NCBI GenBank assembly: GCA_032718475.1
Contig: JAUCBJ010000486.1
Location: 1-64,000, forward strand
Direction of reading: 5' to 3'
DNA: 64,000 bases
Source: Nemertoderma westbladi
Lineage: Eukaryota > Animalia > Xenacoelomorpha
The first letter of the stretch is position 1. Each line of letters begins with the position of its first letter. A program made the position numbers and the translations under genes. The notes under the pieces were generated by a model. That model was given only the letters and a program-made list of their open reading frames with translations. It was not told the DNA's origin and searched no databases. Positions 171 through 42,348 of the stretch are shown here, piece after piece.

Positions 171-214
171 GGCCTACCAAGTAGTAGACCCACTACCGTA
201 GTACAACATGCCAA

Positions 215-10692: not shown

Positions 10693-13600
10693 CTCTAGCA
10701 AATCCTCCCTAGTAAACTTATAGGCTCTAGCAAGTCCTTCCCAGTAAACATATAGGCTCTAGCAAGTCCTTGCCAGTAAACTTATAGACTCTAGCAAGTC
10801 CTTGCCAGTAAACTTATGCTCTAGCAAGTCCTTGCCAGTAAACTTAGGCTCTAGCAAGTCTTTCCCAGTAAACATATAGGCTCTAGCAAGTCCTTCCCAG
10901 TGAACTTATACGTTCTAGCAAGTCCTTCCCAGTAAACATATAGGCTCTAGCAAGTCCTTGCCAGTAAACTTATAGACTCTAGCAAGTCCTTGCCAGTAAA
11001 CTTATGCTCTAGCAAGTCCTTGCCAGTAAACTTAGGCTCTAGCAAGTCTTTCCCAGTAAACATATAGGCTCTAGCAAGTCCTTCCCAGTGAACTTATACG
11101 TTCTAGCAAGTCCTTCCCAGTAAACTTATAGCCTCTAGCAAGTCCTTACCAGTAAACTTATAGACTCTAGCAAGTCCTCCCCAGTAAACTTATAGGCTCT
11201 AGCAAGTCCTTGCCAGTAAACTTATAGACTCTAGCAAGTCCTTGCCAGTAAACTTATGCTCTAGCAAGTCCTTGCCAGTAAACTTAGGCTCTAGCAAGTC
11301 TTTCCCAGTAAACATATAGGCTCTAGCAAGTCCTTGCCAGTAAACTTATACGTTCTAGCAAGTCCTTCCCAGTAAACTTAGGCTCTAGCAAGTCCTTGCC
11401 AGTAAACGTATAGGCTCTAGCAAATCCTTGACATTAAACTTAGGCTCTAGGAAGTCCTTGCCAGTGAACTTATAGGCTCTAGCAAGTCCTTCCCAGTAAA
11501 CTTATAGGCTCTAGCAAGTCCTTGCCAGTAAACGTATACGATCTAGCAAGTCCTCCCCAGTAAACTTATAGGCTCTAGGAAGTCCTTGCCAGTGAACTTA
11601 TAGGCTCTAGCAAGTCCTTCCCAGTAAACTTATAGGCTCTAGCAAGTCCTTCCCAGTAAACTTATAGGCTCTAGGAAGTCCTTGCCAGTGAACTTATAGG
11701 CTCTAGCAAGTCCTTCCCAGTGAACTTATAGGCTCTAGCAAGTCCTTGCCAGTAAACGTATACGATCTAGCAAGTCCTTACCAGTAAACTTATAGGCTCT
11801 AGCAAGTCCTTGCCAGTAAACGTATACGATCTAGCAAGTCCTTGCCAGTGAACTTATAGGCTCTAGCAAGTCCTTCCCAGTAAACTTATAGGCTCTAGCA
11901 AGTCCTTGCCAGTAAACGTATACGATCTAGCAAGTCCTTACCAGTAAACTTATAGGCTCTAGCAAGTCCTTGCCAGTAAACGTATACGATCTAGCAAGTC
12001 CTCCCCAGTAAACTTATAGGCTCTAGCAAGTCCTTCCCAGTAAACTTATAGGCTCTAGGAAGTCCTTGCCAGTGAACTTATAGGCTCTAGCAAGTCCTTC
12101 CCAGTGAACTTATAGGCTCTAGCAAGTCCTTGCCAGTAAACGTATACGATCTAGCAAGTCCTTCCCAGTAAACTTATAGGCTCTAGCAAGTCCTTCCCAG
12201 TAAACTTATAGGCTCTAGGAAGTCCTTGCCAGTGAACTTATAGGCTCTAGCAAGTCCTTCCCAGTGAACTTATAGGCTCTAGCAAGTCCTTGCCAGTAAA
12301 CGTATACGATCTAGCAAGTCCTTGCCAGTGAACTTATAGGCTCTAGCAAGTCCTTCCCAGTAAACTTATAGGCTCTAGCAAGTCCTTGCCAGTAAACGTA
12401 TACGATCTAGCAAGTCCTTACCAGTAAACTTATAGGCTCTAGCAAGTCCTTGCCAGTAAACGTATACGATCTAGCAAGTCCTCCCCAGTAAACTTATAGG
12501 CTCTAGGAAGTCCTTGCCAGTGAACTTATAGGCTCTAGCAAGTCCTTCCCAGTAAACTTATAGGCTCTAGCAAGTCCTTCCCAGTAAACTTATAGGCTCT
12601 AGGAAGTCCTTGCCAGTGAACTTATAGGCTCTAGCAAGTCCTTCCCAGTGAACTTATAGGCTCTAGCAAGTCCTTGCCAGTAAACGTATACGATCTAGCA
12701 AGTCCTTACCAGTAAACTTATAGGCTCTAGCAAGTCCTTGCCAGTAAACGTATACGATCTAGCAAGTCCTCCCCAGTAAACTTATAGGCTCTAGGAAGTC
12801 CTTGCCAGTAAACGTATAGGCTCTAACAAGTCATTGCCAGTAAACTTATAGGCTCTAGCAAGTCCTTGCCAGTAAACTTAGGCTCTAGCAAGTCCTTGCC
12901 AGTAAACTAATAGGCTCTAGCAAGTCATTGCCAGTAAACTTATAGGCTCTAGCAAGTCCTTCCCAGTAAACTTATAAGCTCTAGCTAGTACTTGCCAGTA
13001 AACTTAGGCTCTAGCAAGTCCTTCCCAGTAAACTTATAGGCTCTAGGAAGTCCTTGCCAGTAAACGTATAGGCTCTAACAAGTCCTTGCCAGTAAACTTA
13101 GGCTCTAGCAAGTCCTTCCCAGTAAACTTATAAGCTCTAGCTAGTACTTGCCAGTAAACTTAGGCTCTAGCAAGTCCTTCCCAGTAAACTTATAGGCTCT
13201 AGGAAGTCCTTGCCAGTAAACGTATAGGCTCTAACAAGTCCTTGCCAGTAAACTTAGGCTCTAGCAAGTCCTTGCCAGTAAACTTATAGGCTCTAGCAAG
13301 TCCTTGCCAGTAAACTTAGGCTCTAGCAAGTCCTTGCCAGTAAACTTATAGGCTCTAGCAAGTCCTTACCATTAAACTTATAGGCTCTAGCAAGTCCTTG
13401 CCAGTAAACTTAGGCTCTAGCAAGTCCTTCCCAGTAAACTTATAAGCTCTAGCTAGTACTTGCCAGTAAACTTAGGCTCTAGCAAGTCCTTCCCAGTAAA
13501 CTTATAGGCTCTAGGAAGTCCTTCCCAGTGAACTTATACGTTCTAGCAAGTCCTTGCCAGTAAACTTATAGACTCTAGCAAGTCCTTGCCAGTAAACTTA

Positions 13601-14357
13601 TAGGCTCTAGCTAGTCCTTGCCAGTAAACGTATACGAACTAGCAAGTCCTCCCCAGTAAACTTATAGGCTCTAGGAAGTCCTTGCCAGTAAACGTATAGG
13701 CTCTAACAAGTCCTTGCCAGTAAACTTAGGCTCTAGCAAGTCCTTGCCAGTAAACTTATAGGCTCTAGCAAGTCCTTGCCAGTAAACTTAGGCTCTAGCA
13801 AGTCCTTGCCAGTAAACTTAGGCTCTAGCAAGTCCTTGCCAGTAAACTTATAGGCTCTAGCAAGTCCTTCCCAGTAAACATATAGGCTCTAGCAAGTCCT
13901 TGCCAGTAAACTTATAGGCTCTAACAAGTCATTGCCAGTAAACTTATAGGCTCTAGCAAGTCCTTGCCAGTAAACTTAGGCTCTAGCAAGTCCTTGCCAG
14001 TAAACTTATAGGCTCTAGCAAGTCCTTGCCAGTAAACTTAGGCTCTAGCAAGTCCTTCCCAGTAAACTTATAAGCTCTAGCAAGTCCTTGCCAGTAAACT
14101 TATAGGCTCTAGCTAGTCCTTGCCAGTAAACGTATACGATCTAGCAAGTCCTCCCCAGTAAACTTATAGGCTCTAGGAAGTCTTTGCCAGTAAACGTATA
14201 GGCTCTAACAAGTCATTGCCAGTAAACTTATAGGCTCTAGCAAGTCCTTGCCAGTAAACTTAGGCTCTAGCAAGTCCTTGCCAGTAAACTTATAGGCTCT
14301 AGCTAGTATACTTGCCAGTAAACTTAGGATCTAGCAAGTCCTTGCCAGTAAACTTAC
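10693..14357. repeat. 32-bp satellite array (~3.7 kb, roughly 115 units) with 30-bp variants and higher-order blocks
   Basis: Unit CTCTAGCAAGTCCTT(G/C)CCAGTAAACTTATAGG; variant units recur in the same order. Confidence 0.98.
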
Positions 14358-14699
14358 GTCTCTGCAAGTAAATTTATATACCTGCAAACTAGACTTACAT
14401 ACCTGCAATTTATCTTATATCAGTGCAAGTGAACTTAGGTCCCTACAATTAATACAATCTATATACAGTATATGCTTATTATGATACTTCAATAACTTCG
14501 AAAATTATCACGTAAAATAAACTGTTGTTGGCTCCCTGTAATGGGATAATTCGATATTAGTTAACATAATTGTATAATTTCTTCCTCCTTTTACTACAAA
14601 TTACCAAACACTGGGGAGGGAGTTTTTATGTATATTTTATTTTTATTACAAAAAATGTCATTTTTATTAAGAACATAATCACAACATTTGAATGAATAT

Positions 14700-17524: not shown

Positions 17525-18902
17525 TGTTGCCGTTATTCCCGACACCATGGGGGGAAACGCCGATGCTGGAGGCGGAACTTTTCAGACCACGGAATCCCGG
17601 CCAGTCACCGGATATTGGTAGTGGAGAAGGAATACGTTCTTAAATGCAAGATAGCGGTTGAGAAAAGTTTCATTGGTTGGCTATAATCTTTAATGTAACT
17701 TCCCTACATTTGAACCTTGATTGAGAATAAGTTGGGCTTCCCCAAACCAATATACACCAAATATTCACAATAATATAACACGACAATATAAATCCCTACA
17801 GTACATTATTTAATTACCCACTGTTCGCTCAGATTTTAACCTAACTAATGTTCCCCAATTTTCCCTCGGTCCTAGTCTCTGTACCATAGTGTCGGTGTCG
17901 GTCGACCCTGTTGCGTGTCCGTCCCACCCTTCCCGAACCCCGAAGGGATCGGTCATCAGGAAAGCGGTACGGCTTGGCTAAGGGTCGGTCCAGTCGGTAG
18001 ACCCGGTTGCGTGTCCGTCCCACCCTTCCCGAACCCCAAAGGGATCGGTCATCAGGAAATCGGTACGGCTTGGCTAGGGGTCTGTCGGTTCATCGCAGGG
18101 ACCCAACCACCTAGGCTTTCCGAGTCCTTATTCAGGCTCATAGTCGCTTCAGCAGCCGAGAAGCTGCTCCGAACAGTCGGTAGGCCAGTAGAGTCCAGTC
18201 CTTTGTCTTTCGACCCCGTTGCGTGTCCGTCCCACCCTTCCTGAACCCCAAAGGGATCGGTCATCAGGAAAGCGGTATGGCTTGGCAAGGGGTCTGTCAG
18301 CCCGTCGTGAGCCCCAACGGTTGGTGGTTTTCCGAGTCCTTATTCAGGCTCGTACTAACGCCGGTCGTGGGACCCACTCCAGGAAGGCAGTCCTCGTCGA
18401 ACCCTTCCTCCGTTAGTCGGTCGACCCGTTCGCGTGTCCGTCCCACCCTTCCCAAACCCCAAAGGGATCGGTCATCAGGAAAGCAGTACGGCTTGGCTAG
18501 GGGTCTGTCGTCGGTTCCCGTCGCAAATCCCTGACACAAGCAGCAGACTTTCCGAGTCCTTATTCAGGCTCGTAATAACTGCTGTTGGCCAGGGACCGCT
18601 AAGGGCAGTCCTTGTCCTTTAGACCTAGCGAGTTACCAAATCCACCTCTACAGGCAGCAGGAAGTTGGCTAGGCCTAATAGTAATCAGGCAAACCTGAAT
18701 ACTGCTTAACTTTGCCTCCCACCCCTGGTCCTTAAATACATGAAATGAGTCCCGTACCCCGTAAGTCGCCCCAATATTCGCCCATAAATCGCCCCCAGTC
18801 CATCCCATGTTCCCGCACCCAGTAGTGATATCGGAATATTCATTTAAAATAAATCCAAAAAATATTCAACTCGCGTTAAGAAAAGTTGAAATACCGCGAA
18901 CA
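17525..18902 (-). repeat. 3' LTR of element A (1378 bp, 4 internal repeat units)
   Basis: Near-identical to 40865-42348; preceded on the minus strand by a PPT. Confidence 0.95.
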
Positions 18903-20065: not shown

Positions 20066-23000
20066 CTACGGGAGTCGGAGCGGCACTGGGACCCTTTTTA
20101 ACCTGTATCGCTGAATATGGGTTTTGGGTCTTCCGAGTAGATGGTTAGGAGTGAGAGGCTCCAGATCTGTGGGGTCATCGCGGATAGGTACGATGGGCCG
20201 GTTGTTTAGGGTAGCCGTGATCTCGCAGAATGTTGTGCGGAGGGTGTCGTGGGTTACCCGGGTGTCTCCTAATGCGACGCGCATGGATCGTTTTACCAAG
20301 TCGATGAGCTTCTCCCATACCCCACTCGTATGGGGTGCTAAGGGTGTTTGGAAGTGCCACTGTATATGGTGTTCCCTCCAGACTTGGGATGCGGTGTCTT
20401 CGGTGAACCATCCTTCGATCGCCTCTCTGAGTTCTCTTTCTCCTCCCACGAAGTTTGTACCATTATCGGAGTACATATGACGAGATGTTCCATTGTTCGC
20501 CACGAACCGACGCAGGGTGTTGATAAATGCGTGTTGCGTAAGGTTCACCACGATGTCTAGGTAGATTGCCCTAGACCTAAGGCATGTAAAGATGGCTCCC
20601 CAGCATTTGATGTTGGATCGTCGCTCGATGACTGTGAATGGTCCGGAACAGTCTACTCCGGTTACGTAGAACGGTGGGAATCGGACTGTAGATATGTGGC
20701 TGGTAAGTCGGCCATCCTTTGTGTGAGTGGTGGCGCTAGATATCTTCTGCAGGGAAAACAACGTTTTAACACTTTCCGGATTAGTTGCTGGATGTGGGTG
20801 ATCCAATATCTTTGCCGTATATTAGCCATGATCCAGTTCTGTCCAGCGTGATGGTTTTCCTCGTAACTCTGTTGGATTAATAGCTTGGCTAGTGTTGACG
20901 TTCAGGGCAGAAGCGCTGGGTATTTGACTTCGTATTCAACCGGGGCGTTTGCCATCCGGGTATTCAGTCGAATCAGTCCGTCTTCTCCCATGATTGGTCT
21001 CAATTGGTAGACTGGACTGTCCGGTTTCAAGGTCTTGCCCGCACTGAGTTGTTCCCACTCATCGGGGAAACTTTCTTTCTGGACATATCTAATAATACAC
21101 TTCTCCGCAATAATGAGTTCTTGTATACTTCATCGGACTATCGGTTTGTTGTTTTTCCACTGCAGGAAGTTGCAAAGGGTTAAGATGTGGTGGATGAGAC
21201 GTCTCATTGAGGAGGTTCGCTCTATCAATAGTTGTAAAGACGCTGCTGGTTGCGTGATAGTCGCAATATTATAGTGCCTGCCCGAGTCCTTTGCAGGCTC
21301 GGTCAGACAACTATAGATCTCCACTGTGGCGCTTCTATGGACTTTACGGATCTCCTTGTCGTCTTCGGAGTATTTTCCGCTATCGAGTTCAGGATCGAAT
21401 CGGGTACTCCAGGTTAGTTGTGGTTGCTGTAGGAATTCCGGGCCGGTGAGCCAGAGTTTACTTTTACCGAGCTGTCGTGGGGTGGCGCCTCTGCTTGATA
21501 AGTCCGCTGGATTTTCTTTCCCGTTCACATGGTGCCACTGTTCTCGGCCGGTGCACTGTTTTATCTCCGTGGCTCGGTTCGCTACAAACGTGGTGTGACG
21601 CCGTGATGGTGAGTGGAGGTAGTAGAGAACAATACTCGAATTGACCCAGAAATGTTGCGATTCGATGGGGATTCGTAGGTTCCGCATGACCATGTGGTTC
21701 TGTCTCACTGCCCAAACTGCGGCCTGTATCTCGAGTCTCGGTATCGTTGCTACGAATTCCCCGGATACTGTCTTAGCCTTGGAAAATAAGAAGCTTGTAT
21801 CGCCGTTTCCATCCTGACTTAGTCTTCTTAGGAAAGTGACTACGCCGATTCCGGTATTTGAAGCATCCGAGAAAGTATGGAGCTGGAATATATCGGTGGG
21901 TAGTTTATTGAGGAAGAACGGTCGAGGGATCCGCATAAGATGTAGATGTTCGAGTTGTTCCGTCCACTTTCTCCATTTGACACTGAGGTGTGGGGGGAGT
22001 TCTTCGTCCCATCCCAGTCATTCTATCCACATTTCCTTGATCAAGTTCATTCCGGCCAATGTTACTGGGGATATGAAGTTTAGTGGATCGAATATAGCAC
22101 TCTTTATGGACAGACATCCCATTTTTGTCATGGGCTTGGGTAGGGGGTTATATTTGAAGATGAATTCATCCAATTCTATGTCCCATTCAATGCCGAGTAC
22201 ACGGTGATCCACATCCTCGGAATACATTTTATTGTTGTCCAGTCTGATTTCCTCCGGAAACTTTTCCATAAGTTTCTTGTCGTGGGATCTGAACTTTACG
22301 AGAGGGAAACCTCCTTTCTTTAAACATTCTACCATCCCCATCGCCAGCTGATATGCCTCGTCAACATTATCGGCACCGGCGCATCCGTCGTCCACGTAGA
22401 AGCATCGTCGGATGGTTTCTATGACTGTCGGAGGGAACTCGTTTTCGCACATAGTCGCTGTTTTCTTCAGCATGTTACTACATGCTACCGGCGAGTCCTT
22501 AGCGCCGAAGATCCTGACAATCATGTGCATTACGTCCACATCCTTCAATGTGAGTTGACATATCTCCTGTGGAGTTAATGTTTTATCCGTCCATAATATA
22601 CGCAGACAGTCTGAGTCTCTTGGTAGCGTTCGGACCTGGTGAAACATCGCTTTGATGTCGCATGTGAATGCTATCCGGTTTTCCCTGAACCTGATCAACA
22701 CGCCGATAAGTGTACTGTATATGTTAGGCCCTGTATAAAGTTGGCTGTTCAGGGATTCGCCTTGATACATAGCAGCAGCATCATTTACCGCCCTTCCGGG
22801 CTTCTACCACATAGTGGGTTGGGAGATAATACGTCCGTCTACCCCCTTGCAGTTCATTCCGGGGTACCATTTCCGCCAATCCATCTTCTAGATATCCTTT
22901 GATTACATTATTGTATTTCTCCTTTATCTCGGGTTGGTCATTCAACTGGCGTAGGATTCCTTTGAGCCACCTAAGGGCCATGTTGGCATTATTCGCCATC

Positions 23001-23931
23001 GGTTTATCTGGGTCTTTCCACAGCATGGGTGAACACCAATGTCCGTCTTTGAACGTGGCCTGATCAAGGATGTCAATACAGTATTGATCTTCCTCAGACG
23101 GGTTCTCGTCCTTTTCTGCAAACTCTTGTGTCTCTAGGTTAAAATATTTGGTCATTTCCTGCTGGGTTTTTTCCGTCTCTAGGAATAAATCCTCGTCCAG
23201 GTCTGTTGCTGAACAATAACCCATGGATGTTGCACTCTCTTTAATCTGACATTTAGGGAGATATGTATAGGTATCTGTAGTCTCCTCTTTGATGCCGCAG
23301 AGTGTCCATCCCATGATCGTGCGTTCTGCGTAAAAGCCATCGTCCGGCTTTACAGATCGGGCGACGTCTCCGGTGGGTATGTGTAATTCCGGTGTGTCGA
23401 GTCCGATCAATAGGGTGATTCGGTTCACGTCCAATGGTGGACATCGTAGGTCTACATCTTCCCGGTCTAACTGTATGAGGGGTGCGTATTCAGCTGATTG
23501 TCGGAACCTCACTCGGAGATCGGTGTGTACCAAGGCGTTCTTGATCGTCAGCTTGACCGTCTTGTAACCCTTCATGACTCCTTCCATCTGGAGCTGCACC
23601 TCCCCAGACTCTACTTCTCTATGGTGGGTGATAGTTTGTATGGGCCGTTTGCAAGGTTCGTAGTCTAGGCCGAGTTGTTCGAGGAAATCCTGGTCGATGA
23701 TGGTTCCATCCGACCCATTGTCAAGGAACGCGAGCATTGTCAAGGATTTCCCAACCCCTTGAATTCTTACTGGGATTACTTTGGCGAAGACCATGTAACG
23801 GCGATTTATAAGGTTGATCGTAGCCGAGATATTTGTCACTTGTGATACATCGGTGGAGGTCTTAAATGGATTGGTTTCCCTCCGTTGAATCGTCCGGGTT
23901 TCTTTAAAGACGTGGTTCGTTTCTCCTCTTC
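20066..23931 (-). pseudogene. pol: pol of element A (PR-RT-RNase H-IN) broken by frameshifts and stops
   Basis: PR AFLDNGSDGT; RT CDIKAMFHQV and FYVDD; Pao RNase H LHTFSDAS..TIPRLE..NPADLSSRG; IN HHCC (NHHAG..CFPC, alternate frame ~20745-20860) and core GVDCSGP..SDNGTNF..WEKL. Confidence 0.95.
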
Positions 23932-25154
23932 TGTAAAAGCTTTTGCTGAATTGTCCGGTTATTTTTCCTTATTTTTCCCGTAAAATACTCTGTAGTTGGT
24001 TTACCAGGCATAAAAAGGCCGTGTCCTTGCTGTACTGGTGTTTTAGCGGACATAAAAGCAATTTCTTCTGTATTTGTACTTTAGAGGACATAATCCGTAA
24101 TTCCGTGACGTAAAAGCTCGATACTCTTGAAAACAGTATCGCTACCATGACGACGGCTAGCAGCTGATATTGCCACGTCGACGTTTCTTTGTTTCTCTGT
24201 TCTCTCGTTGTTCAGGTTGACCAATCAGAGCGTTTGTTATCTCTGTGTTGGAGGTATATACAGAAACTCAGTAGTTCAGTGTTATGTTTTTGACCAGAGC
24301 CTAAGAACCGGCTTTGGCACCTCCGTGTTTTCAGTTTTTAGTCTTACACTAGTAGGTTTAATTATAAAGGGCATATATCCTTTAACTGACATACCGATCA
24401 AACTCATGGAATCACTGCTAACTGATCATACATACTGACTGCTGAAACATTGCAAACTCATAACAATCAGTGTTCAGTTGTTGTTTTATACTGCTATTTG
24501 TTGTCGGTTATTCATTATATTTGTTGATGAATTATTATATTGGAATAACGAGAAATAACCCCGACACCCAATATTCTTGATATACCGAAGGTAAGAGAGA
24601 AAGGTTACAGATAAACGATTGTGACTTATGTTAAAGTGGTTTGAAGTGAATCTAATGTTATTTGATAGACCCTACATGAGTCAGTCTGTGTTCCTTTTAT
24701 ATGTGACTAAAATCAGTGAAGATTGGCAGATTAGTGTGCAGTATTGTGCAGCATTGTGTATGAGTGAGTCTGTTAAAGAAGCAATTCCTAAAGAATGCGC
24801 CATATATGTGAATTATAATTAAGCCATATCGTTGTGAGTAGTTTAAGTCATAACTCTGTTTATATAGATAAAGCGCCACGTCCTAAAGGAACTGTTAATA
24901 TTACCGAAGGTGAATAATATTGTCAGAGATTATATAATACTGTCAGTCGAATAATACATTAGGCTTACATAGCAATAAAATTAAACCGTCGAACCCAATC
25001 TCCCGGGAATCTCCAGCGGGTGAATGGTCGCGCACGGATTGGTTTCGACTAGTGTAGTGAATCAAATACTTGTCATAGACTAAAAACAGATTTAATATCT
25101 AGAAGACATCTTAATTTGGTGGGTTAAACTGCCAAAGGTCTGAAAGCGCGAACA
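23932..25154 (+). repeat. 5' LTR of element B
   Basis: Direct repeat of 36894-38116. CCAAT ~24221, TATATA ~24255, TCAGT Inr-like ~24276, AATAAA 24974-24979. Confidence 0.97.
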
Positions 25155-25166
25155 TTAAAGGATATA
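25155..25166 (+). promoter_or_regulatory. Non-tRNA primer-binding site of B, complementary to its own LTR
   Basis: TTAAAGGATATA abuts the LTR CA and is the exact reverse complement of TATATCCTTTAA at 24374-24385. There is no TGG start. Confidence 0.7.
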
Positions 25167-25429
25167 GCTTCTTTATTGCAGTAAGCAATAAAGTCGAAAG
25201 TACCGGTCGACCGGTAACCAGTAGGCCTGACTGCCTGATCATCCGGACCGGTACCTACAGCAGTATTATTCGATTTTGATTGTTATATACCAGTAGGCCT
25301 TAATAATTAATCAGGGACTGCAGCCCTGGTTTTTTATTGAGATTTTTACTTATTTCTGTCAAGTTTTATTTGTTTGTAGGCCAGTATTGAACAGAAGGCG
25401 TGTAAACCTGATCAGATTGTACAGACAAT

Positions 25430-25995
25430 TTGTAGGCTGAGCTGTTGTCTGATTGCTATTAAGTCTGAACGGATTACAGTGTGTGTAGAGCACTTGTCCG
25501 ATTAAGTACGGTTAGGAAGTAGGGGCAGCCAATGCGGTAAGGTAAACCCCCAACTAAAGAATAAGTCGCACTACTGGGTTAGAGCGCATACTCCCTAATC
25601 ATTTCGGAGTCTGCATGTCCTGTGGTTTATTTAGGCTTGAGAGTAGTCTGCCATCGTTTAGTCTGTACTTTGTTTGTGTAAGTCTGTACGGGTAGCGTAT
25701 AATTTTATTTAAATAATTTGTAGGCTGGATAGTTGTCTGGCTGTTATTAAGTCTGAACGGATTGCCGCGTGTGTAGATCATCTGTCCGATTAAGTACGAT
25801 TAGGCAGTAGGGGCAGCGAACGCTGTAAGGTAAACCCCCAACTAAAGAATAAGTCGCACTACTGGGTTAGAGCGCATACTCCCTAATCATTTCGGAGTCT
25901 GCATATACCGTGGTTTGTTTAGGCTTGATAGTAGTCTGTCAGTGTTCGGTCTGTATTTTGTTTGAGTAGTTTGTACGCGTAGCGTAATATTTATT
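25430..25995 (+). repeat. ~290-bp tandem duplication in the 5' leader of B
   Basis: Block TAAGTCTGAACGGATT..GTAAGGTAAACCCCCAACTAAAGAATAAGTCGCACTACTGGG..TTTCGGAGTCTGCAT occurs twice, about 289 bp apart. Confidence 0.9.
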
Positions 25996-28055: not shown

Positions 28056-28736
28056 TTAAGTAACTTAGGTAAATTAGTATTATTTGTTTTAGTGTCCTGT
28101 ACGTAACACTTCACTGAAAGCGCACCGCTTTGTGTAGTGATTACTCCCCAGAAATAATAACATTTATTTCAAACATTGACAAAACCCATTAAAAACGGGT
28201 ATATATATATTATAAATCAAATCTAACGATTTATAAATCGTAGGCCTACCATACAACCATTAGGCCTCAATATCAGTTGGATTACTGCTCAAATAACGGT
28301 AATAAAGTAAGTAAAGTAACCAAGTAACCCTAAAATTCAGAAATTCAATTATTTAAAATAATTGATATACCGGTATTCTCGATAGGCCTATTATCTTTAT
28401 TTCTATAAATTTTGGCTGAAATTATACCAGTACTTGTAATTAATTCTAGTCCAGAATTATATATACTACAAACTGTAAGTAGTATACCGGTATTCCGATA
28501 GGCCTATTATATGTTTATATATATTTGTGCTAAAATTATACCGGTATTCTGTGATAAACCTAGTCTGTAATAATAGTTATATATACTATAAGCATACCGG
28601 TATTCTAATATATTATATATCACTCTACACTGAGTAGCAGTACCGGTAATTAATTACTAGGCTAGTAGGTAATACTGAGTTACTAGACTTACTCAGACTG
28701 TAATACAGCAGTAGACATTCAACGGTATACATAGTC

Positions 28737-31700
28737 ATGTCTGATACTAAGCAGAACCTGTCAGACAGTTTATTAGATGTAACTATCTGCGACTCAGATA
28801 GAGACGTACCACTGTCTGGTCGTAAATCCAGTTCACCTCCCACTGTGAGGAAAGTCATCCCTCCAGTAGTAATAACAGAACCTAGGCTGGTCCAACATCG
28901 TAGGTCTATCATAGGCACCCGAGCTCAGGTCAAGCGGGACCAACAAGCGGCGGAACAGCAACAACCCGCTAGTCAAGAACTTATTCCTCAGCGGCCCAGC
29001 AGCTCCAGTAGTGAGGATACTGTAGAGCTGACACCCGAGAGCGGAGCAGAGATGACGGATGCGGTTTATACGGATCCCCTTCTCATCCTTCCTGCAGCCG
29101 TGCTCGCTGGGTTATTGATCGCGGTGGAAGAACACCAGATCGATTGGGCGAGAAGTCAACGGTCAACTAGAGATAGCTACGCGGGCTACACTAGTGAACA
29201 ACTGAAGTCTATTGTCGAGTCGCAATGGAACTTCCCCGGACCCGGACTCCCGTTTGATTTATCAGAAGCTGCCTGGGAAGACATACACCGGATGGGAGTA
29301 GCCAAGGAAACCATCGATCCAGCTGTGTGGAAGAGGTCCGCAGCCGGATACACACAGGGATTCTTCAGCTCTATGGAGCGAATAGAAAAGCAACTTTTTC
29401 AACAACCTCAAGGACCTCAAAAGCAGGGATCGCTGCTTTATCAAGTTAGAGAAAGAGTTCTGCGGATTAGGCTAATCTTATCCGCCTTTGAGGAGGCTTC
29501 TAAAAGAAAACAAGACACGTCGTTGCAAGTTGCCGTAAAGACTTGGTTTCAACGGGTGAGTCGCCAGGTTCAAGGAGCAGCTCAGTGGAAAGCTCAGTTG
29601 GAGGAGCGCTCAACCCATGGAGAATCAACAGACGCTACTTTTTCCCAAGTGGAAAGTGAAGCGACGGCAGAGAAACCGCATAAGAGGGATGCCATTGACA
29701 TCTATCTGTCAGACTATCAGCGTTTCGTAGGTGATGAAGAGTTGCGGAGAAGACTAGATGGGCTTAGCTCTAATAGTGAAGGAGCCCAGCGTGTGTTGGA
29801 TGCAATTGATGTGGATAGGTTAGCGGCGAACCAAGCTAAATTCGATGAACAACTCCGCATCGCTAGAGAACAAGAAGAACAAGTAAGAAAAAAACGTATA
29901 GAAGACAGAAAGATAGCAGCAGTGGCAGAGGCGGAAAGAAAAGCGACCTTGGCAGAAGCAGCGGCAGAGGCAAAAGCGGCAGCAGCAGAAGCAGAGGCAA
30001 AGGCAACAAAAGCAGCAGCAGAAGCAGAGGCAAAGGCAACAAAAGCAGCAGCAGAAGCAGAGGCAACAGCGGCAGCAGCAGAAGCAGAGGCAAAGGCAAC
30101 AGCGGCAGCAGCAGAAGCAAAGGCAGAGGCAAAAGCGGCAGCGGCAGAGATAAAAGCGGCAGCGGTGGCGGAAGCAGAACGGAGAGCATCTGAAGAGGCA
30201 ACCCAACTAGAGTTGGAAAATCTACAAGAGAGGCAAGACAACTTCAATAAACAGTTAACAGCTAGTAATATGCAGATGATGAATCGATCTACTCCCAAAA
30301 GACAGGGATATACATCATCTGAGGAAGGCGATACCACCGATACTGAAGGCAAGGGAAATAGATCTCGTCCAAGTAGACGTAAAAGAACATTCCACCGTCA
30401 GAAATTGCCTGATTTGCCTCCAGCTGTTAGAAGGCAACTAAATAACACTAACTTAGGTAGTACTGAGCCCACAGACCAAATAATTAAAATAGAAAGACTC
30501 CCTACTATAGTAGATGAGCCTGAAATAATTAGGCCTGTTCTTGAAATCACCCCTACGGTAATAGATACACCTGTGCTCCCTGAAGCTACCTATAAATTCC
30601 CTCTACATAGCACTAAGCTACCTGTGCCCCGTAGAACTGCCCGAGAGACAGTTCAGGTCCTGGACCCCGAGCAAAATATTCCGAATTTGTCGCCCGTTGT
30701 CCCTTGTCTGCCCGCTACGACGTTGGCGGATCCCGTTTCGGCGGTTGATTGGGTAGACGAGAGACGGCGGGGGATGGATATTCTCCTCGGAGAGATGAAG
30801 GAGAATCGGATACGCTCCTCCCAACAGGTCCGAGAGTTGGAAGGGACTGTCCAACATTTAAAGGGAACAGTGAGGGAAAGCAAGTTAGAGTTGCAAGAAG
30901 TGCAGCAAAATATCGCGCTAGAGCGCGATAAATTAGTAAATTTACAAAAGGGTATACCACCACCCCCTGTAACAATGTGTCAACCCGTTAGGTCTGAAGT
31001 ATCTCATGCGCAAGGTGTGGAGCCTACACGCATTTATACTGCTAGCGAAGTAGAAACTCCTATAGTGAACCCTATTAAGGGTAATTATAGACCTGTTTGT
31101 AATGATATTCCCTATGGAACTGATCATAATCCGAGGAATTTATATACCGATAACTCGATATTAAATAGCACGATGGCCCAAGAAAGTTTTACGCGTCAAA
31201 TGGCTAGAACCGAAGCCCGGCAAGCGGTAAAGGTTGGAGAGATCGTCAAGTTCAATGGAGATGAGATGAAATGGTTACCTTTTAATGAATATTACAAAGA
31301 TAACATACAGAACTCTGTACTATCTAATGGAGAAAAACTTAGATACCTCATCGAGTGCTTGGAAGGATCTCCCAAGTTAATGGCGTTAAGGTTTATTGGA
31401 CATCCAGACGGATTAAGACAAGTTTGGGATACACTAAACATCAGGTATGGTAATAGGAATAACATAGCTGGGTATTTGTATGCAAAGTTGGTAGCGCCCC
31501 GAAAGTTTATTAGCAGCGGGATTATAGAGTTTTCCGATGAAATTCAGGAGATCTGCAGACAATTAGATTGGCTAGGTAAGTCTCATGAGTATCAGAGTGC
31601 TATGGTTATTAGAGCAGTGGCTTCTACTTTGCCGAAGGGTGGAGTAGGTACACGCTGGGATAAGAAAGTGTTATATATGATGGAACAACAACAACGAGAC

Positions 31701-33824
31701 CCTACCATGGCTGATCTCATGTCATTCTTAGATAGAGAAGTGAAATTACAGCTCCTAAGGCAGTCCAGAGAGAAGACATTGGAAAACAAGGTAAGTGAGA
31801 AACCCGTTTCTAGGAGAAGGGTAACACCAGTATGTTATACCGACGACGGTGAAAGCCAAACTTCTCAAGGAGAGGACAGCGGGAAAGACACTGACAGATC
31901 TTATTATGTCAATAAATTGCCTAAAGATCAGGTAAGTAAATCCGAGTCTCGACCCAATGACAGAAGGGAACTGGTACAAAAAACCCCTCCTACGTCTCCT
32001 AAAAGAATTCAGGTGAGAAAGCCCGAGGAAAGAACAAGTGTGCACCACACAGCACATGTTAAAGTAAGTAACATCAAGCCCAAATGTGTGCTGTGCGACG
32101 GGCCCCACCGTTTAAATGCGTGTGATAAATTCCTGAGGAAATCACTCGAGGATAGACGTGAAGTCATGTGGGATAAGCGGTTGTGTTATAATTGCCTCAG
32201 ACGAGGACACCAACGGCGAACCTGTAACTCCGACGCAAGGTGTGCAAAGTGCGGCGCAAAACATCATATCTTGTTGCACACGGAATTCGAACGAAACAGC
32301 CCGAGTCAGGTAAGTGAGTCCGAACTACATGTCCAATTCAGTGATGTGAACGACACTGATCAATCTGAGATGGAAGGATTCTATACGGACGAGTTCTCCG
32401 ACCAAAACGAATCCTGTTACCTAATAAACACCACCGCAGTGTATCGAGCACTCGTGTATGAGAAAGACACAGACAGCGACCTTACCTTAACTACTTCCGA
32501 TCAACAACCATCTTGGAAAGCGCCAACTTCCAATATAGGAATCCGAGAATTTCCTGTAGTCCAGTTACGGGTCTACGGACCTCAGAAGAGCTATATAGTG
32601 AACGCCCTCCTGGACTCCGGTAGCACAGGAACATTCATCGATAAAGAACTAGCCGAAGTCATCTTTGCTGGACAACCCAAGTTCCGAACCATGCTAAACA
32701 TGTCAGGGATCATGCAGGTTTGGAATTCTACTGTAGCTGCCGACTATTATATAGGTGAGTTGTCCACCCCCCAGGACGAACTAGGAGAACATAGCATCAG
32801 GTCAGTGAAAATGGTGGCTATAAAGAACTTCGCTACTACTCAAGCAGACCTTTATAATTGGGACGAGGATGAGAGCATCCAACATCTTAACATACCTCGA
32901 TTACAGACTGATTATCCTGGAGTGCAAATACTCATCGGCCAAAACGCGCATGAGGCGCTGGAGACATTAGAGAAACGGCCTGCTCAACCGCAGCCACTAC
33001 AGACCTATGCGGTAAGAACTAGAGTAGGTTGGTACCTTACTGGACCTTCCGGTAGAACGCTCAGGGAAAGACTGCTTCAAGATCGCGTCTGCCAGATGAG
33101 TGAATGGGAAGATGATACTAGTGAGGGAGACGACCCAACTGAGGGAACACCACACTCCTCAGATAATGACAATCTTAGCTCCAATGTAGATCAATGGAGA
33201 TATTGCCCCAAGAAGTTTAATCCAACGGACATCGCTTCCAGAGGAGCAACTCCTCAAGAACTGACAGATACTATAGACCGGTTAGGTGAACCCGACTTCC
33301 TGAGTAAGGAGAATGAATGGCCTCCCCATCTTACTCCGACTGAGATTAGACCAGCCAAGGGAGCGGAGAAAGTCGAACCTGAAACCCGGACGGGTGGATC
33401 GGAGTTATTTGAACCCGGGATAGATCTGTCGGTATTACATGTTACCAGGGACGACGCCGTGGATCTGGGCCTCCCCTCCGCGAGTGGATCCTTCATGAAG
33501 ATCAGAGAGAGCGATTGGAGCTCTGGAACATCAGACGTCTCGCAGGGACTCTCACCTCTCCTGCAGAGAGCGACGGACCACTATAGCTCCTGGAATCAGC
33601 TTTGTGACGCCGTCATATACTTTGAGCGATGTTTCTATCGTCACTATTCCAGGACGAAGAGGAAACCTGGAATTGTATTCAGGATGCAGCGACTCAATCA
33701 CCCAGTCGGTCGTTTGTGTTTATCGGAAGGGAATGGAGGACTCTCCGGAAACTGTGGAAGGCAAGATTCTCTTCCCACGACCACCTCCCTAATCCTTCAA
33801 ACATCTAGGGACTCCATAACGTAA
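28737..33824 (+). CDS. gag: BEL/Pao Gag-protease polyprotein (1695 aa) fused in frame to an RNase H C-terminal remnant; RT and IN absent
   Basis: DUF1759-like IVKFNGDEMKWLPF..EKLRYL; triple Cys motif CVLCDGPH / CYNCLRRGHQRRTC / CAKCGAKHHILLH; PR ALLDSGSTGT; then QWRYCPKKFNPTDIASRG. No YxDD motif. Confidence 0.92.
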   Translation: MSDTKQNLSDSLLDVTICDSDRDVPLSGRKSSSPPTVRKVIPPVVITEPRLVQHRRSIIGTRAQVKRDQQAAEQQQPASQELIPQRPSSSSSEDTVELTPESGAEMTDAVYTDPLLILPAAVLAGLLIAVEEHQIDWARSQRSTRDSYAGYTSEQLKSIVESQWNFPGPGLPFDLSEAAWEDIHRMGVAKETIDPAVWKRSAAGYTQGFFSSMERIEKQLFQQPQGPQKQGSLLYQVRERVLRIRLILSAFEEASKRKQDTSLQVAVKTWFQRVSRQVQGAAQWKAQLEERSTHGESTDATFSQVESEATAEKPHKRDAIDIYLSDYQRFVGDEELRRRLDGLSSNSEGAQRVLDAIDVDRLAANQAKFDEQLRIAREQEEQVRKKRIEDRKIAAVAEAERKATLAEAAAEAKAAAAEAEAKATKAAAEAEAKATKAAAEAEATAAAAEAEAKATAAAAEAKAEAKAAAAEIKAAAVAEAERRASEEATQLELENLQERQDNFNKQLTASNMQMMNRSTPKRQGYTSSEEGDTTDTEGKGNRSRPSRRKRTFHRQKLPDLPPAVRRQLNNTNLGSTEPTDQIIKIERLPTIVDEPEIIRPVLEITPTVIDTPVLPEATYKFPLHSTKLPVPRRTARETVQVLDPEQNIPNLSPVVPCLPATTLADPVSAVDWVDERRRGMDILLGEMKENRIRSSQQVRELEGTVQHLKGTVRESKLELQEVQQNIALERDKLVNLQKGIPPPPVTMCQPVRSEVSHAQGVEPTRIYTASEVETPIVNPIKGNYRPVCNDIPYGTDHNPRNLYTDNSILNSTMAQESFTRQMARTEARQAVKVGEIVKFNGDEMKWLPFNEYYKDNIQNSVLSNGEKLRYLIECLEGSPKLMALRFIGHPDGLRQVWDTLNIRYGNRNNIAGYLYAKLVAPRKFISSGIIEFSDEIQEICRQLDWLGKSHEYQSAMVIRAVASTLPKGGVGTRWDKKVLYMMEQQQRDPTMADLMSFLDREVKLQLLRQSREKTLENKVSEKPVSRRRVTPVCYTDDGESQTSQGEDSGKDTDRSYYVNKLPKDQVSKSESRPNDRRELVQKTPPTSPKRIQVRKPEERTSVHHTAHVKVSNIKPKCVLCDGPHRLNACDKFLRKSLEDRREVMWDKRLCYNCLRRGHQRRTCNSDARCAKCGAKHHILLHTEFERNSPSQVSESELHVQFSDVNDTDQSEMEGFYTDEFSDQNESCYLINTTAVYRALVYEKDTDSDLTLTTSDQQPSWKAPTSNIGIREFPVVQLRVYGPQKSYIVNALLDSGSTGTFIDKELAEVIFAGQPKFRTMLNMSGIMQVWNSTVAADYYIGELSTPQDELGEHSIRSVKMVAIKNFATTQADLYNWDEDESIQHLNIPRLQTDYPGVQILIGQNAHEALETLEKRPAQPQPLQTYAVRTRVGWYLTGPSGRTLRERLLQDRVCQMSEWEDDTSEGDDPTEGTPHSSDNDNLSSNVDQWRYCPKKFNPTDIASRGATPQELTDTIDRLGEPDFLSKENEWPPHLTPTEIRPAKGAEKVEPETRTGGSELFEPGIDLSVLHVTRDDAVDLGLPSASGSFMKIRESDWSSGTSDVSQGLSPLLQRATDHYSSWNQLCDAVIYFERCFYRHYSRTKRKPGIVFRMQRLNHPVGRLCLSEGNGGLSGNCGRQDSLPTTTSLILQTSRDSIT

Positions 33825-36885: not shown

Positions 36886-36893
36886 GGGAGTGG
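36886..36893 (+). promoter_or_regulatory. Polypurine tract of element B
   Basis: GGGAGTGG directly before the TG of the 3' LTR. Confidence 0.75.
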
Positions 36894-38116
36894 TGTAAAA
36901 GCTTTTGCTGAATTGTCCGGTTATTTTTCCTTATTTTTCCCGTAAAATACTCTGTAGTTGGTTTACCAGGCATAAAAAGGCCGTGTCCTTGCTGTACTGG
37001 TGTTTTAGCGGACATAAAAGCTATTTCTTCTGTATTTGTACTTTAGAGGACATAATCCGTAATTCCGTGACGTAAAAGCTCGATACTCTTGAAAACAGTG
37101 TCGCTACCATGACGACGGCTAGCAGCTGATATTGACACGTCGACGTTTCTTTGTTTCTCTGTTCTCTCGTTGTTCAGGTTGACCAATCAGAGCGTTTGTT
37201 ATCTCTGTGTTGGAGGTATATACAGAAACTCAGTAGTTCAGTGTTATGTTTTTGACCAGAGCCTAAGAACCGGCTTTGGCACCTCCGTGTTTTCAGTTTT
37301 TAGTCTTACACTAGTAGGTTTAATTATAAAGGGCATATATCCTTTAACTGACATACCGATCAAACTCATGGAATCACTGCTAACTGATCATACATACTGA
37401 CTGCTGAAACATTGCAAACTCATAACAATCAGTGTTCAGTTGTTGTTTTATACTGCTATTTGTTGTCGGTTATTCATTATATTTGTTGATGAATTATTAT
37501 ATTGGAATAACGAGAAATAACCCCGACACCCAATATTCTTGATATACCGAAGGTAAGAGAGAAAGGTTACAGATAAACGATTGTGACTTATGTTAAAGTG
37601 GTTTGAAGTGAATCTAATGTTATTTGATAGACCCTACATGAGTCAGTCTGTGTTCCTTTTATATGTGACTAAAATCAGTGAAGATTGGCAGATTAGTGTG
37701 CAGTATTGTGCAGCATTGTGTATGAGTGAGTCTGTTAAAGAAGCAATTCCTAAAGAATGCGCCATATATGTGAATTATAATTAAGCCATATCGTTGTGAG
37801 TAGTTTAAGTCATAACTCTGTTTATATAGATAAAGCGCCACGTCCTAAAGGAACTGTTAATATTACCGAAGGTGAATAATATTGTCAGAGATTATATAAT
37901 ACTGTCAGTCGAATAATACATTAGGCTTACATAGCAATAAAATTAAACCGTCGAACCCAATCTCCCGGGAATCCCCAGCGGGTGAATGGTCGCGCACGGA
38001 TTGGTTTCGACTAGTGTAGTGAATCAAATACTTGTCATAGACTAAAAACAGATTTAATATCTAGAAGACATCTTAATTTGGTGGGTTAAACTGCCAAAGG
38101 TCTGAAAGCGCGAACA
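36894..38116 (+). repeat. 3' LTR of element B
   Basis: Direct repeat of 23932-25154, followed by the TSD TCTTC. Confidence 0.97.
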
Positions 38117-40431
38117 TCTTCGTTTGGCTTCGATCCGAAAGGGGAGGGTGGTAAAGTCTAAAGTTCGCGGGGATGTGGAGGAGTGTGTGATGACGTAGGT
38201 CATTAAGACCGCGCAGCACGATCTTTGGTCGCAATCCCGAACATAGTGACCCATGTTCCGAGACACCGGAAGCATCCTCGGTGTTTCATTATCGCCTCGA
38301 ATCGTGGGACGAGTTCAGCAAACTGGAACTTTCTGCAGAATTCCACCTTATGTTTCTCTCCGCAGAAAAGACATAGAAGGGAGGTTGTGGTGCCTTCCCT
38401 TTCGGGTGCCCAATTCGCTAGATAACACGCCCATTCCTCGGCTGATGTCAGTTCCTCGTAGTCCTCGTCGTCGGAATCCTCGGCCATGGTGATGGCCATC
38501 GTACTCACCGGAAGGGGATGGAATCTCGGTTTCGGAGTGGGTGTCCTGCTCCTGGAGTTGTTCTCTATTCCGTCTAACTTGGAGAGACTTTGTTTGGAGA
38601 ACATTGAGTCATTTAAGGCTTCGGAGATATCATCTAGGAATGCCGACATTTCGAGGAAACTGGGATCTCGATCTGGGTGTCTGAGTCGGAGATCTACGCA
38701 TTTATACGCCCACTTGCTTTGTAGCCATCCGGGGAACTTTCGGGCAATCTGTCGGAGGTTTAGAATGTTGTTTACTTGTTCCTCCTTATTTAATGGTTTT
38801 AGAGTGTAGTAGGCATCTTTCATGGAATCCGAGAATTCCTGGATATTCTGTGGGTCCCCTAGGGATCCCGCGTCCTGTATCAGTTTCTCGAGAGTTTTAT
38901 TAATTATAGTCCCGATATTTCCGTATCTTTTGTCTAGAGTTTTCCATGCGTCATAGTATGCTTCATGAGATCCTCCCTCGAAACATTTAATGATTCGACG
39001 TGGTTTGTCGCCCAGGTATTGGGATAAATATACCAGTTTTTGTGTGTCGGTTATATCCGTTGACCCAATCTGAGCGAAGAACCATTTCTTAGGTAATCGA
39101 CGGGGTCTCCTTCGAAGGTGCGGATCTCCATCTTGGGCATGGCCAGGCGGTTTTCCAATGCCCGGATAATGCCGACGTCATCTGAACTGGAATGACTAGG
39201 AGGGTTATAGTTATTAACACTCTCTCCCATGCACGATGGATCAATGAGAGGTGGAGTTTTAATGATGACGCGGTTACGGATTTGTGGTGTGGATGTAAAC
39301 GGATTGTTGGATCGAGGGGTGGCGTCCCGTTCCGAGTCCTTTTCAGGCTCGTACTTGAGAACGCCCGGTGCCGTGGGGTTGGATGGGAAATAAGGTTCCT
39401 CATTCTTAAGCGTAACCGGTGGGGGATGGAATACCGGTGCTTGTGCCGTTAACGTAGACGATATGGTTGGCGGGAACTCGGGTTTCGGAGGTTTCGCCGC
39501 CGGTGGCGTAAATGACTTCTCTAATTCCGGGACCGGGATTGGTTCATAGTTCTGTTCTATACCCCTTTCCCAGTCCTCGTATAGTTGAAGATCCCGTTCT
39601 ATGAGTGCGGCTTCGTAGTCCGCGAGTTTCGCAATATCCGCATTCTTTTTATGGATGAGAATCACTTGGGCCTCGGCATGTTGTTTACACATTTCTGCCT
39701 CTAGTTTACGTTGTTCAGCCTCTCGTTCACGTTGTTCGGCCTGTTGTTCGGCCTCTCGTTTACGTTGTTCGGCCTGTTGTTTGGCCTCGTTTTTGCATTT
39801 CAGCTGCCAATACATCCTGTTCGATCTGCAGTTGAACATATTCGTCTTCCATTCGAGCTTTTTGGGCCAATGCCCTCTGTTCTCGTAGCTGATCTCGGAG
39901 TGGCTGACCCCCTTGAGAACTGCGCGCTGAACCGGATATCTCGCTCCTAGCGCTGGAGTGTTAGTGCCTCGAGGACCCCGTTCTCTTTCGATGAATTGCT
40001 GTCCTGGTGCTGGAGGTCCGCACCGATTCTGCGTCTGTCCTTTCAGTTCTCTTATAGTACTGTTCCTCGTAGCCTCTTACAAGGCTGAGGGTCCTCCGAT
40101 GTTGCTTCCGGAACTCGTCCAAATGTGCGATGTGTTCTTCGAGTTTGGGGTAGTTTACCTGATCCGTTGCGGGAATAAGTTCTTGATATGATTTTATCAT
40201 CCTCTCATATCGTTGTAAGATACTTCGGATATTCTGTAGCTGAGTCTGTATCTCGTTGAGGGGGGTTTCGACTCCCCTTAGTTGTTTCTCTATACGTTGG
40301 TATGCTCGAGTCACTCCGCCTTTGAGAGCTCCCAGTCGACGACCCATGTTCTTCACATTCGGCACCTCGTCGGCTCCCGAGTCTGTGTGGGGGTCCATCT
40401 CATCGGTATCAGAGACGTTATTCGTCGTCAT
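38117..40431 (-). pseudogene. gag: gag of element A, frameshifted
   Basis: Consecutive ORF pieces 39961-40431, 39051-39839 and 38203-38823 with LAMPKMEIRTFEGDPVDY (DUF1759-like), CLFCGEKH and CFRCLG knuckles. Confidence 0.9.
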
Positions 40432-40619: not shown

Positions 40620-40850
40620 TCCCTGTTAACGACTCTCTATATGTGATCTGCCGACTACGAGTTTATTAGTTCGAGTTTGTCGATTAATTAAACCACGGCT
40701 TTGTCTTAAATCAAATACCAGAGTTTCCTCGTAGTAGGTGCTGGGTAAGCACGGAGAGAGTTTGAAGAGTATTGTAGGATTCCCAACTTCCACCAGTTGA
40801 AGTTGGCCGCGTCTTATTCTCAATTTTGACAGCCTGTCAAAATTGAATCC

Positions 40851-40862
40851 CTTATTCTCAAT
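40851..40862 (-). promoter_or_regulatory. Non-tRNA primer-binding site of A, complementary to its own LTR
   Basis: Minus strand reads ..TAACA AA ATTGAGAATAAG. The 12-mer is the exact complement of CTTATTCTCAAT in the LTR (plus coordinates 41060-41071). Confidence 0.7.
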
Positions 40863-40864
40863 TT

Positions 40865-42348
40865 TGTTACCGTTATTCCCGACACCATGGGGGAAAACGC
40901 CGATGCTGGAGGCGGAACTTTTCAGACCACGGAATCCTGGCCAGTCACCGGATATTGGTAGTGGAGAAGGAATACGTTCTTAAATGCAAGATTGCGGTTG
41001 AGAAAAGTTTCATTGGTTGGATATAATCTTTAATGTAACTTCCCTACAGTTGAACCTTGATTGAGAATAAGTTGGGCTTCCCCAAACCAATATACACCAA
41101 ATATTCACAATAATATAACACGACAATATAAATCCCTACAGTACATTATTTAATTACCCACTGTTCGCTCAGATTTTAACCTAACTAATGTTCCCCAATT
41201 TTCCCTCGGTCCTAGTCTCGGTACCGTAGTGTCGGTGTCGGTCGACCCTGTTGCGTGTCCGTCCCACCCTTCCCGAACCCCGAAGGGATCGGTCATCAGG
41301 AAAGCGGTACGGCTTGGCTAAGGGTCGGTCCAGTCGGTAGACCCGGTTGCGTGTCCGTCCCACCCTTCCCGAACCCCGAAGGGATCGGTCATCAGGAAAG
41401 CAGTACAGCTTGGCTAGGGGTCTGTCATGTCGGTGGACCCGTTTGCGTGTCCGTCCCACCCTTCCCAAACCCCGAAGGGATCGGTCATCAGGAAAGTGGT
41501 ACGGCTTGGCTAGGGGTCCGTCGGTTCATCGCAGGGACCCAACCACCTAGGCTTTCCGAGTCCTTATTCAGGCTCGTAGTCGCTTCGGCAGCCGAGAAGC
41601 TGCTCCGAACAGTCGGTAGGCCAGTAGAGTCCAGTCCTTTGTCTTTCGACCCCGTTGCGTGTCCTCCCACCCTTCCCGAACCCCGAAGGGATCGGTCATC
41701 AGGAAAGCGGTACGGCTTGGCAAGGGGTCTGTCAGCCCGTTGTGAGCCCCAACGGTTGGTGGTTTTCCGAGTCCTTATTCAGGCTCGTACTAACGCCGGT
41801 CGTGGGACCCACTCCAGGAAGGCAGTCCTCGTCGAACCCTTCCTCCATTAGTCGGTCGACCCGTTCGTGTGTCCGTCCCACCCTTCCCGAACCCCGAAGG
41901 GATCGGTCATCAGGAAAGCGGTACGGCTTGGCTAGGGGTCTGTCGTCGGTTCCCGTCACAAATCCCTGACACAAGCAGCAGACTTTCCGAGTCCTTATTC
42001 AGGCTCGTAATAACTGCTGTTGGCCAGGGACCGCTAAGGGCAGTCCTTGTCCTTTAGACCTAACGAGTTACCAAATCCACCTCTACAGGCAGCAGGAAGC
42101 TGGCTAGGCCTAATAGTAATCAGGCAAACCTGAATACTGCTTAACTTTGCCTCCCACCCCTGGCCCTTAAATACATGAAATGAGTCCCGTAGTAAGTCGC
42201 CCCAATATTCGCCCATAAATCGCCCCCAGTCCATTGAATGTGCCCAAATCCCATGTTCCCGCACCCAGTAGTGATATCGGAATATTCATTTAAAATAAAT
42301 CCAAAAAATATTCAACTCGCGTTAAGAAGAGTTGAAATACCGCGAACA
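40865..42348 (-). repeat. 5' LTR of element A (1484 bp, 5 internal repeat units)
   Basis: Direct repeat of 17525-18902 with one extra 96-bp unit. ATTAAA on the minus strand at 41029-41034. Confidence 0.95.

Follow-up and report, generated by a model that had tools for sequence, protein, structure and literature searches.

How reverse transcription begins in a long terminal repeat (LTR) retrotransposon whose 5' LTR is not followed by a tRNA-type primer site is the question raised by a 64,000-nt stretch of Nemertoderma westbladi DNA (Xenacoelomorpha; assembly GCA_032718475.1, contig JAUCBJ010000486.1, positions 1 to 64,000 of the forward strand), hereafter called the window. The window contains two nested elements. 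The inner one, element B, is a young BEL/Pao LTR retrotransposon of 14.2 kb and a non-autonomous derivative; the outer one, element A, is also a BEL/Pao element. In both, a 12-nt site at the start of the leader is the exact reverse complement of a segment of the element's own LTR, and we consider it probable that reverse transcription of A and B is self-primed in the manner of Tf1.

Primer-binding sites and their LTR complements

The candidate priming signals of element B and the structure that carries them are as follows.

23927..23931 (left) and 38117-38121 (right), plus strand: target-site duplication (TSD) TCTTC, in the flanks of both B LTRs
23932..25154, plus strand: 5' LTR of B, 1223 nt, TGT...ACA, from the LTR alignment
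24374..24385, plus strand: candidate self-primer TATATCCTTTAA, the 3' end of which (24385) pairs with the first base of the primer-binding site (25155)
25155..25166, plus strand: primer-binding site (PBS) TTAAAGGATATA, beginning at the first base after the LTR and without TGG, from the sequence
28704..33824, plus strand: single long open reading frame (ORF) of B, 1706 aa, with Gag (DUF1759), Cys/His knuckles and a DSGS protease-like motif
36886..36893, plus strand: polypurine stretch GGGAGTGG adjoining the 3' LTR, from the sequence
36894..38116, plus strand: 3' LTR of B, with a second copy of the self-primer at 37336-37347, from the LTR alignment

The first-pass annotation had described 25155-25166 as the reverse complement of 24374-24385 and 37336-37347, and this proved exact. 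These were the only exact reverse complements of TTAAAGGATATA in the whole 64 kb; when one mismatch or fewer was allowed, four complements were found against 1.00 expected, a number reached by none of 100 shuffles. The match in B was complete (12/12) at offset 0, with the 3' end of the primer facing U5 and ~780 nt separating self-primer and PBS. The chance of a 12-nt complement at offsets 0-2 was 0.00035 in 20000 mononucleotide shuffles of the LTR, and at offsets 0-5 it was 0.002 in 2000 segment-swap shuffles, a home-made procedure that is intended to preserve dinucleotides and was used without validation. The pairing between PBS and LTR in B is most likely functional, and it has the geometry that priming requires.

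The two LTRs of B were 99.67% identical across 1224 aligned nt, the four mismatches falling at 24060, 24138, 24173 and 25012. With 4 mismatches in 1223 nt and an intact TSD the insertion is recent, and thus the exact pair of self-primer and PBS has passed one successful round of reverse transcription. The 1706-aa frame matched DUF1759, a BEL/Pao-type Gag family, at E 1.8e-11 (Pfam), and B is regarded as non-autonomous because a domain search of that frame and of seven further pieces of the element found no reverse transcriptase (RT) or integrase family. In the 3.5 kb of leader that separate the PBS from the Gag frame there was a 288-nt tandem duplication (88% identical, 25427-25968), and the frame has in its N-terminal part a run rich in Ala, Glu and Lys, encoded by repeats with periods of 12-33 nt (29891-30181).

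A second case was provided by element A, which lies on the minus strand and received the B insertion in its protease region.

40865..42348, minus strand: 5' LTR of A, 1484 nt, from the LTR alignment
17525-18902, minus strand: 3' LTR of A, with TSD TAATC and a G-rich polypurine tract adjoining 18903
41060..41071, also 17720-17731, minus strand: candidate self-primer of A CTTATTCTCAAT, LTR position 1278-1289, from the sequence
40851..40862, minus strand: PBS of A ATTGAGAATAAG, 2 nt past the LTR, a 12/12 complement to CTTATTCTCAAT
40813..40846, minus strand: post-PBS hairpin of A (~12 bp) together with a second exact copy of the PBS 12-mer (40813-40824), from sequence and folding

Read in its own orientation, the leader of A runs from the LTR end (...GGTAACA) through AA into ATTGAGAATAAG. 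The assignment of A to BEL/Pao rested on DUF1759 (E 7.1e-11) and Peptidase_A17 (E 6.9e-26; both Pfam), found in ORFs that are split over several frames, and no RVT or rve match was obtained in A at E <= 0.001 (Pfam). The Gag proteins of A and B were 28% identical over 138 aa; the elements share TG...CA LTR ends (TGT...ACA in B) and 5-bp TSDs (TCTTC and TAATC). The protease-bearing frame of A (22781-23968, minus strand) runs directly into the B LTR and is interrupted by it, so that B has split the pol region of A, and the nesting makes B the younger of the two.

Chance inverted repeats without function must be considered in DNA as AT-rich as this. Between 0.44 and 0.50% of window positions have a 12-mer complement within the preceding 1223 nt (293 of 58313 positions overall and 254 of 58313, in 43 runs, when the distance was restricted to more than 100 nt), and the A match taken by itself had a shuffle rate of 0.012. 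Each match alone was uncommon, at about 0.2-1.2% in shuffles. Against coincidence stand the occurrence of the match in two nested, different elements, its position 0-2 nt from the LTR edge and correct polarity in both, and the lack of a tRNA-type PBS in either; the joint chance of the A and B matches was ~2e-5 from the shuffles and <= ~7e-4 from the empirical rate multiplied by six offsets. It is unlikely that both matches arose by chance, and of the explanations weighed here that of functionless repeats is the most improbable.

What the PBS might otherwise bind was considered next to these figures. TGG was absent from the first 30 nt after the 5' LTRs of A and B, a result obtained with no search of the host tRNA set, and neither tRNA genes nor Rfam families were found in the 64-kb window. 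The PBS letters of A and B differ and have no common register, each fitting its own LTR, and a shared host primer is therefore unlikely. Half-tRNA primers, which occur in Ty1/copia elements according to a plant survey (PMC6317226), were tried as candidates and rejected on the letters, as neither 12-mer could be accommodated in a 7-nt anticodon loop having U33 and a purine at 37, and as the two 12-mers differ.

The same data bear on the possibility that the helix between PBS and LTR is structural or regulatory (masking of the PBS, packaging, dimerisation or joining of the RNA ends), the primer being a host RNA such as a tRNA fragment. Pairings between U5 and the leader around the PBS are used by retroviruses, the existence of half-tRNA primers lends the idea a candidate primer, and the TATA-like motifs described below argue that the self-primer may lie away from the RNA 5' end. 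A structural helix would not need the 3' end of the primer to abut U5 exactly, as in B, or with a 2-nt gap, as in A, nor does a host primer agree with PBSs that lack TGG, differ between the elements, match their own LTRs and do not suit an anticodon loop. We regard a structural role with a host primer as unlikely.

Under Tf1-like self-priming, the genomic RNA of B would start at or just before 24374, and pairing of its first ~12 nt with 25155-25166 would bend it back on itself. An RT supplied by a helper element would then use its RNase H to cut past 24385, and minus-strand strong-stop DNA would be made by extension of the released 3' end through U5 and R. Here the complementarity, its position and its polarity are observed directly, and the cap site, the cut after the primer and priming itself are what we infer from the analogy. 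By the standard scheme, each cycle would renew the PBS, since the short primer is copied during plus-strand synthesis; both sides would thereby stay matched, which would explain the perfect match in the young element B. Element B, in which neither an RT nor an RNase H domain was found, would depend on a helper enzyme acting in trans while retaining its cis signals.

Predicted folding and the proposed hairpin switch

The first-pass annotation had also proposed that the self-primer segment of B can be locked in a local hairpin which excludes PBS pairing, so that alternation between the two forms, flipped by a chaperone such as the Gag knuckle domain, would time priming. The structures concerned, all predicted, are the following.

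24365..24384, plus strand: local hairpin TAAAGG/CCTTTA, 7 bp including one G-U, 6-nt loop, from folding
25171..25193, plus strand: post-PBS hairpin of B, 9 bp, 5-nt loop, from folding
25201..25216, plus strand: perfect 16-nt palindrome TACCGGTCGACCGGTA after the post-PBS hairpin, -8.3 kcal/mol, z -2.10

Both of the stems named in that annotation were recovered, with very different strengths. The post-PBS hairpin of B was strong (-9.2 kcal/mol, z -5.49, equalled by 0/200 shuffles), and in two-piece folds with self-primer and PBS paired, A and B each retained their own hairpin after the PBS. The local hairpin was marginal by energy (-5.0 kcal/mol, z -2.09, equalled by 10/200 shuffles), and it compared poorly with the duplex of self-primer and PBS in B (-11.6 kcal/mol). 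Two-piece folds gave -26.7 for the PBS-paired form vs -14.4 kcal/mol for the local hairpin form, an advantage of ~12 kcal/mol to the former; they also favoured the pairing of self-primer and PBS over its alternative in B (-22.7 vs -9.4 kcal/mol) and in A (-27.9 vs -13.6 kcal/mol). In the two-piece fold of B the helix was extended beyond a 1-nt bulge by 4 bp (GGGC with GCUU, including two G-U pairs), and no extension of this type was predicted in A. The palindrome TACCGGTCGACCGGTA could form a second hairpin or serve as a self-pairing (dimer) site.

The outcome for longer transcripts depended on where the RNA was made to begin. When it began at the self-primer, the helix of self-primer and PBS was part of the minimum-energy fold of both elements, with pair probabilities of 0.82-1.00 in A (304 nt) and 0.42-0.74 in B (858 nt), lengths near 900 nt being those at which such predictions have low reliability. 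A start at 24360 was the only one to yield both forms in B, the hairpin at ~0.25 and the PBS pairing at ~0.74, and ensembles forced into one or the other form were nearly equal (-228.1 vs -228.8 kcal/mol). For a transcript from about 24280, on which the first-pass annotation had suggested that suboptimal folding be carried out, neither form was predicted, hairpin and PBS pairing both having a probability of 0.0 with a start at 24278.

Several side observations were made on the sequences around these structures. Five short, related TAAAG/CTTTA segments surround the primer and PBS of B (24365-24371, 24374-24385, 25155-25166, 25171-25176 and 25188-25193). In A and B alike, the post-PBS hairpin begins with letters that recur close to the self-primer's 3' end, 5-nt AT-rich words being common in any case. 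The PBS 12-mer of A is present twice, as part of a 16-nt direct repeat CAAAATTGAGAATAAG that lies on both sides of the ~12-bp hairpin (40813-40866, minus strand). The 5' arm of that hairpin has alternative partners, namely the LTR end with the first PBS copy, or the second PBS copy: in the leader alone the first copy was paired with the arm, and when the self-primer was bound the arm paired with the second copy.

For a timing switch it can be said that the hairpin exists, that the ensemble from 24360 is split and its forced forms are of near-equal energy, that the B frame encodes Cys/His knuckles, and that the alternative partners of the post-PBS arm in A predict some rearrangement near the PBS there too. 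A two-state switch implies folds that are mutually exclusive, comparably stable and conserved, and the folds found here did not form such a pair: the hairpin is weak beside the duplex, it is gone together with PBS pairing from the 24278 transcript, and folding of the LTR segment of A placed no hairpin over its self-primer. The 5' arm also overlaps a TATA-like motif, and it would fall outside the RNA 5' end if the self-primer is where transcription starts. We therefore consider a hairpin switch quite unlikely and take the local hairpin to be at most a minor competitor of PBS pairing, no lock.

Candidate transcription signals, family copies and the rest of the window

The points that weigh against self-priming concern the start of the RNA and variation among family copies. 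Two motifs of the B LTR matter for the former.

24364..24370, plus strand: TATA-like TATAAAG, 10 nt 5' of the B self-primer and overlapping the 5' arm of the local hairpin, read from the sequence
24974..24979, plus strand: predicted poly(A) signal, the sole AATAAA/ATTAAA between the B self-primer and the LTR end, with a G/T-rich stretch after it, read from the sequence

Because the poly(A) signal lies ~600 nt past the self-primer, R would be about 600 nt long if the RNA of B starts at the self-primer, and an R of that length would be unusual. The corresponding motifs of A are TATATT, 23 nt 5' of the self-primer, and ATTAAA, ~35 nt 3' of it, with a U5 of ~145 nt. Read as promoter and poly(A) signals, those of A (-23 and ~+35) would roughly fit a self-primer at the start of R, and those of B (-10 and +600) do not fit well. 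A TATA spacing of ~30 nt would put the predicted cap at ~+21 in B and ~+8 in A from the self-primer start; with a TATA box this near, some or all of the self-primer would belong to U3 and be missing from the RNA 5' end. Folding also speaks against self-priming from an upstream start, as forcing PBS pairing on the B RNA from 24278 cost ~15 kcal/mol. Immediately 5' of both 12-mers stands CA or CAA, and since CA is a common start dinucleotide this gives weak support for a start at the self-primer.

If the self-primer does lie in U3, between the TATA-like box and the cap, only its 3' LTR copy would be transcribed, and pairing of the PBS with the 3' U3/R border could circularise the RNA and allow priming from the 3' copy. 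The predicted caps at ~+21 and ~+8 under canonical TATA spacing speak for this arrangement. By the standard retroviral scheme it would entail a very long RNA primer, would give plus-strand strong-stop DNA no natural end and would block the second strand transfer; we know of no retroelement described as priming from the 3' LTR copy of a circularised RNA. Priming from the 3' copy is accordingly very unlikely in our estimate.

The B family was very abundant in DNA runs carrying the same organism label, with 16993 contigs in run X1 and 3392 in run X3, and these bore on the question, raised in the first-pass annotation, of whether family copies conserve both sides of the pairing. In favour of self-priming, no substitution was listed in 24340-24419 in the contig alignments of X1 and X3. 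Against it, the PBS variant 25159 A>C made up 26% of depth in X1 (115882/448950) and 28% in X3 (75297/269722), and among the variants listed there was no T>G at the partner position 24381, the contigs being too short to link the two sites. By the refuting condition set out in the first-pass annotation this variant counts against the idea, though not decisively.

The segment around the self-primer varied in other ways between family copies. Depth dipped at 24370-24429 in both X1 and X3. In a few DNA contigs of X3, joints 24386->24478 and 24390->24478/24479 left ~90 nt missing right after the self-primer; these joints had ends TG..AG or AT..AG and accounted for <1% of depth. A primer assembled across a splice junction is not required at this locus, as both 12-mers are contiguous and come after CA or AA, with no AG before them. 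Depth along the LTR was higher in the 3' half in X1 and X3 and in the 5' half in run X5, and is unfit for placing the U3/R border.

Elsewhere the window contained repeats and host-like genes. A tandem array with a 33-nt period occupied window positions 93-855, and a satellite of ~3.7 kb with a 32-nt period and units ~90% identical extended over about 10627-14369. Three host-like sequences lay in single open frames: a full-length Mo25-like gene at 52245-53270 (minus strand, E 1.6e-142), an EXOSC1/CSL4-like gene at 57458-58072 (plus strand) and a GDSL lipase-like piece at 8040-8822 (minus strand).

Comparison with known priming systems

Descriptions of classical BEL/Pao elements usually include a tRNA-type PBS, and BEL/Pao elements are, to our knowledge, restricted to animals. 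Elements A and B resemble the surveyed metazoan BEL/Pao (Semotivirus) in their DUF1759 Gag, the Pao peptidase A17 (in A), their TGT...ACA LTRs and their 5-bp TSDs. The terms 'primer binding', 'PBS', 'tRNA' and 'self-prim' occur nowhere in the main text of a survey of metazoan BEL/Pao elements (PMC3118150), and in the open full-text literature we found no paper linking self-priming to BEL/Pao. Relatives were sought in public collections as well: a 17-nt LTR-end pattern hit 1 viral and 59 metagenome loci, all by chance (0 blastn matches to the LTR at E <= 1e-3), and a protein-based scan of viral contigs found none.

The self-primer complement of Tf1 is 11 nt long, against 12 nt in A and B. Like Tf1 and Tf2 of Schizosaccharomyces pombe, A and B have no tRNA PBS and carry an LTR segment complementary to the site that follows the LTR. 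In Tf1/Tf2 the element's own RT is reported to detach the self-primer from the mRNA by cleavage and then to extend it (PMC5341516), and in Tf1-type priming the PBS is stated to require perfect complementarity to the first nucleotides of the mRNA (PMC5445492). The differences are of two kinds. Tf1 and Tf2 are fungal Ty3/gypsy chromoviruses, whereas A and B are BEL/Pao elements by Pfam, and the proteins of both are of BEL/Pao type, not of the Ty3/gypsy chromovirus type of the Tf1/sushi clade. Element B further differs from Tf1/Tf2 in the ~780 nt that separate its primer from its PBS and in lacking a detectable RT/RNase H domain, an activity needed in trans.

A plant survey predicted self-primers from complementarity of 10 bp or more to a region that begins 0-5 bp past the 5' LTR (PMC6317226), and by this measure both elements qualify, B at offset 0 and A at offset 2. 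Its predictions, drawn from plants only, were confined to Tf1/sushi and Tcn1 (Ty3/gypsy) and TAR (Ty1/copia) (PMC6317226); those for A and B are of the same kind, made from sequence only, in another superfamily. If they hold, the self-priming signature is present in two distant BEL/Pao families and extends to a third large LTR retrotransposon superfamily, and it would explain the frequent failure of tRNA-based PBS annotation in BEL/Pao elements, for which a search for complements to the element's own LTR 0-5 nt past the 5' LTR offers annotators a test. It would also mean that a derivative in which no RT domain is found can retain all the cis requirements for priming, and it bears on whether hairpin or self-priming came before tRNA priming, an order of events raised in a review (PMC3601003).

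A parallel to the choice of transcription start in B is found in Tf2, in which alternative start sites are described and the presence of the self-primer in the transcript decides whether reverse transcription is possible (PMC5341516). By analogy, the choice of start site in B would determine whether the self-primer is absent, 5'-terminal or buried. Elements A and B may work like Tf1, but they stand outside the Tf1 clade.

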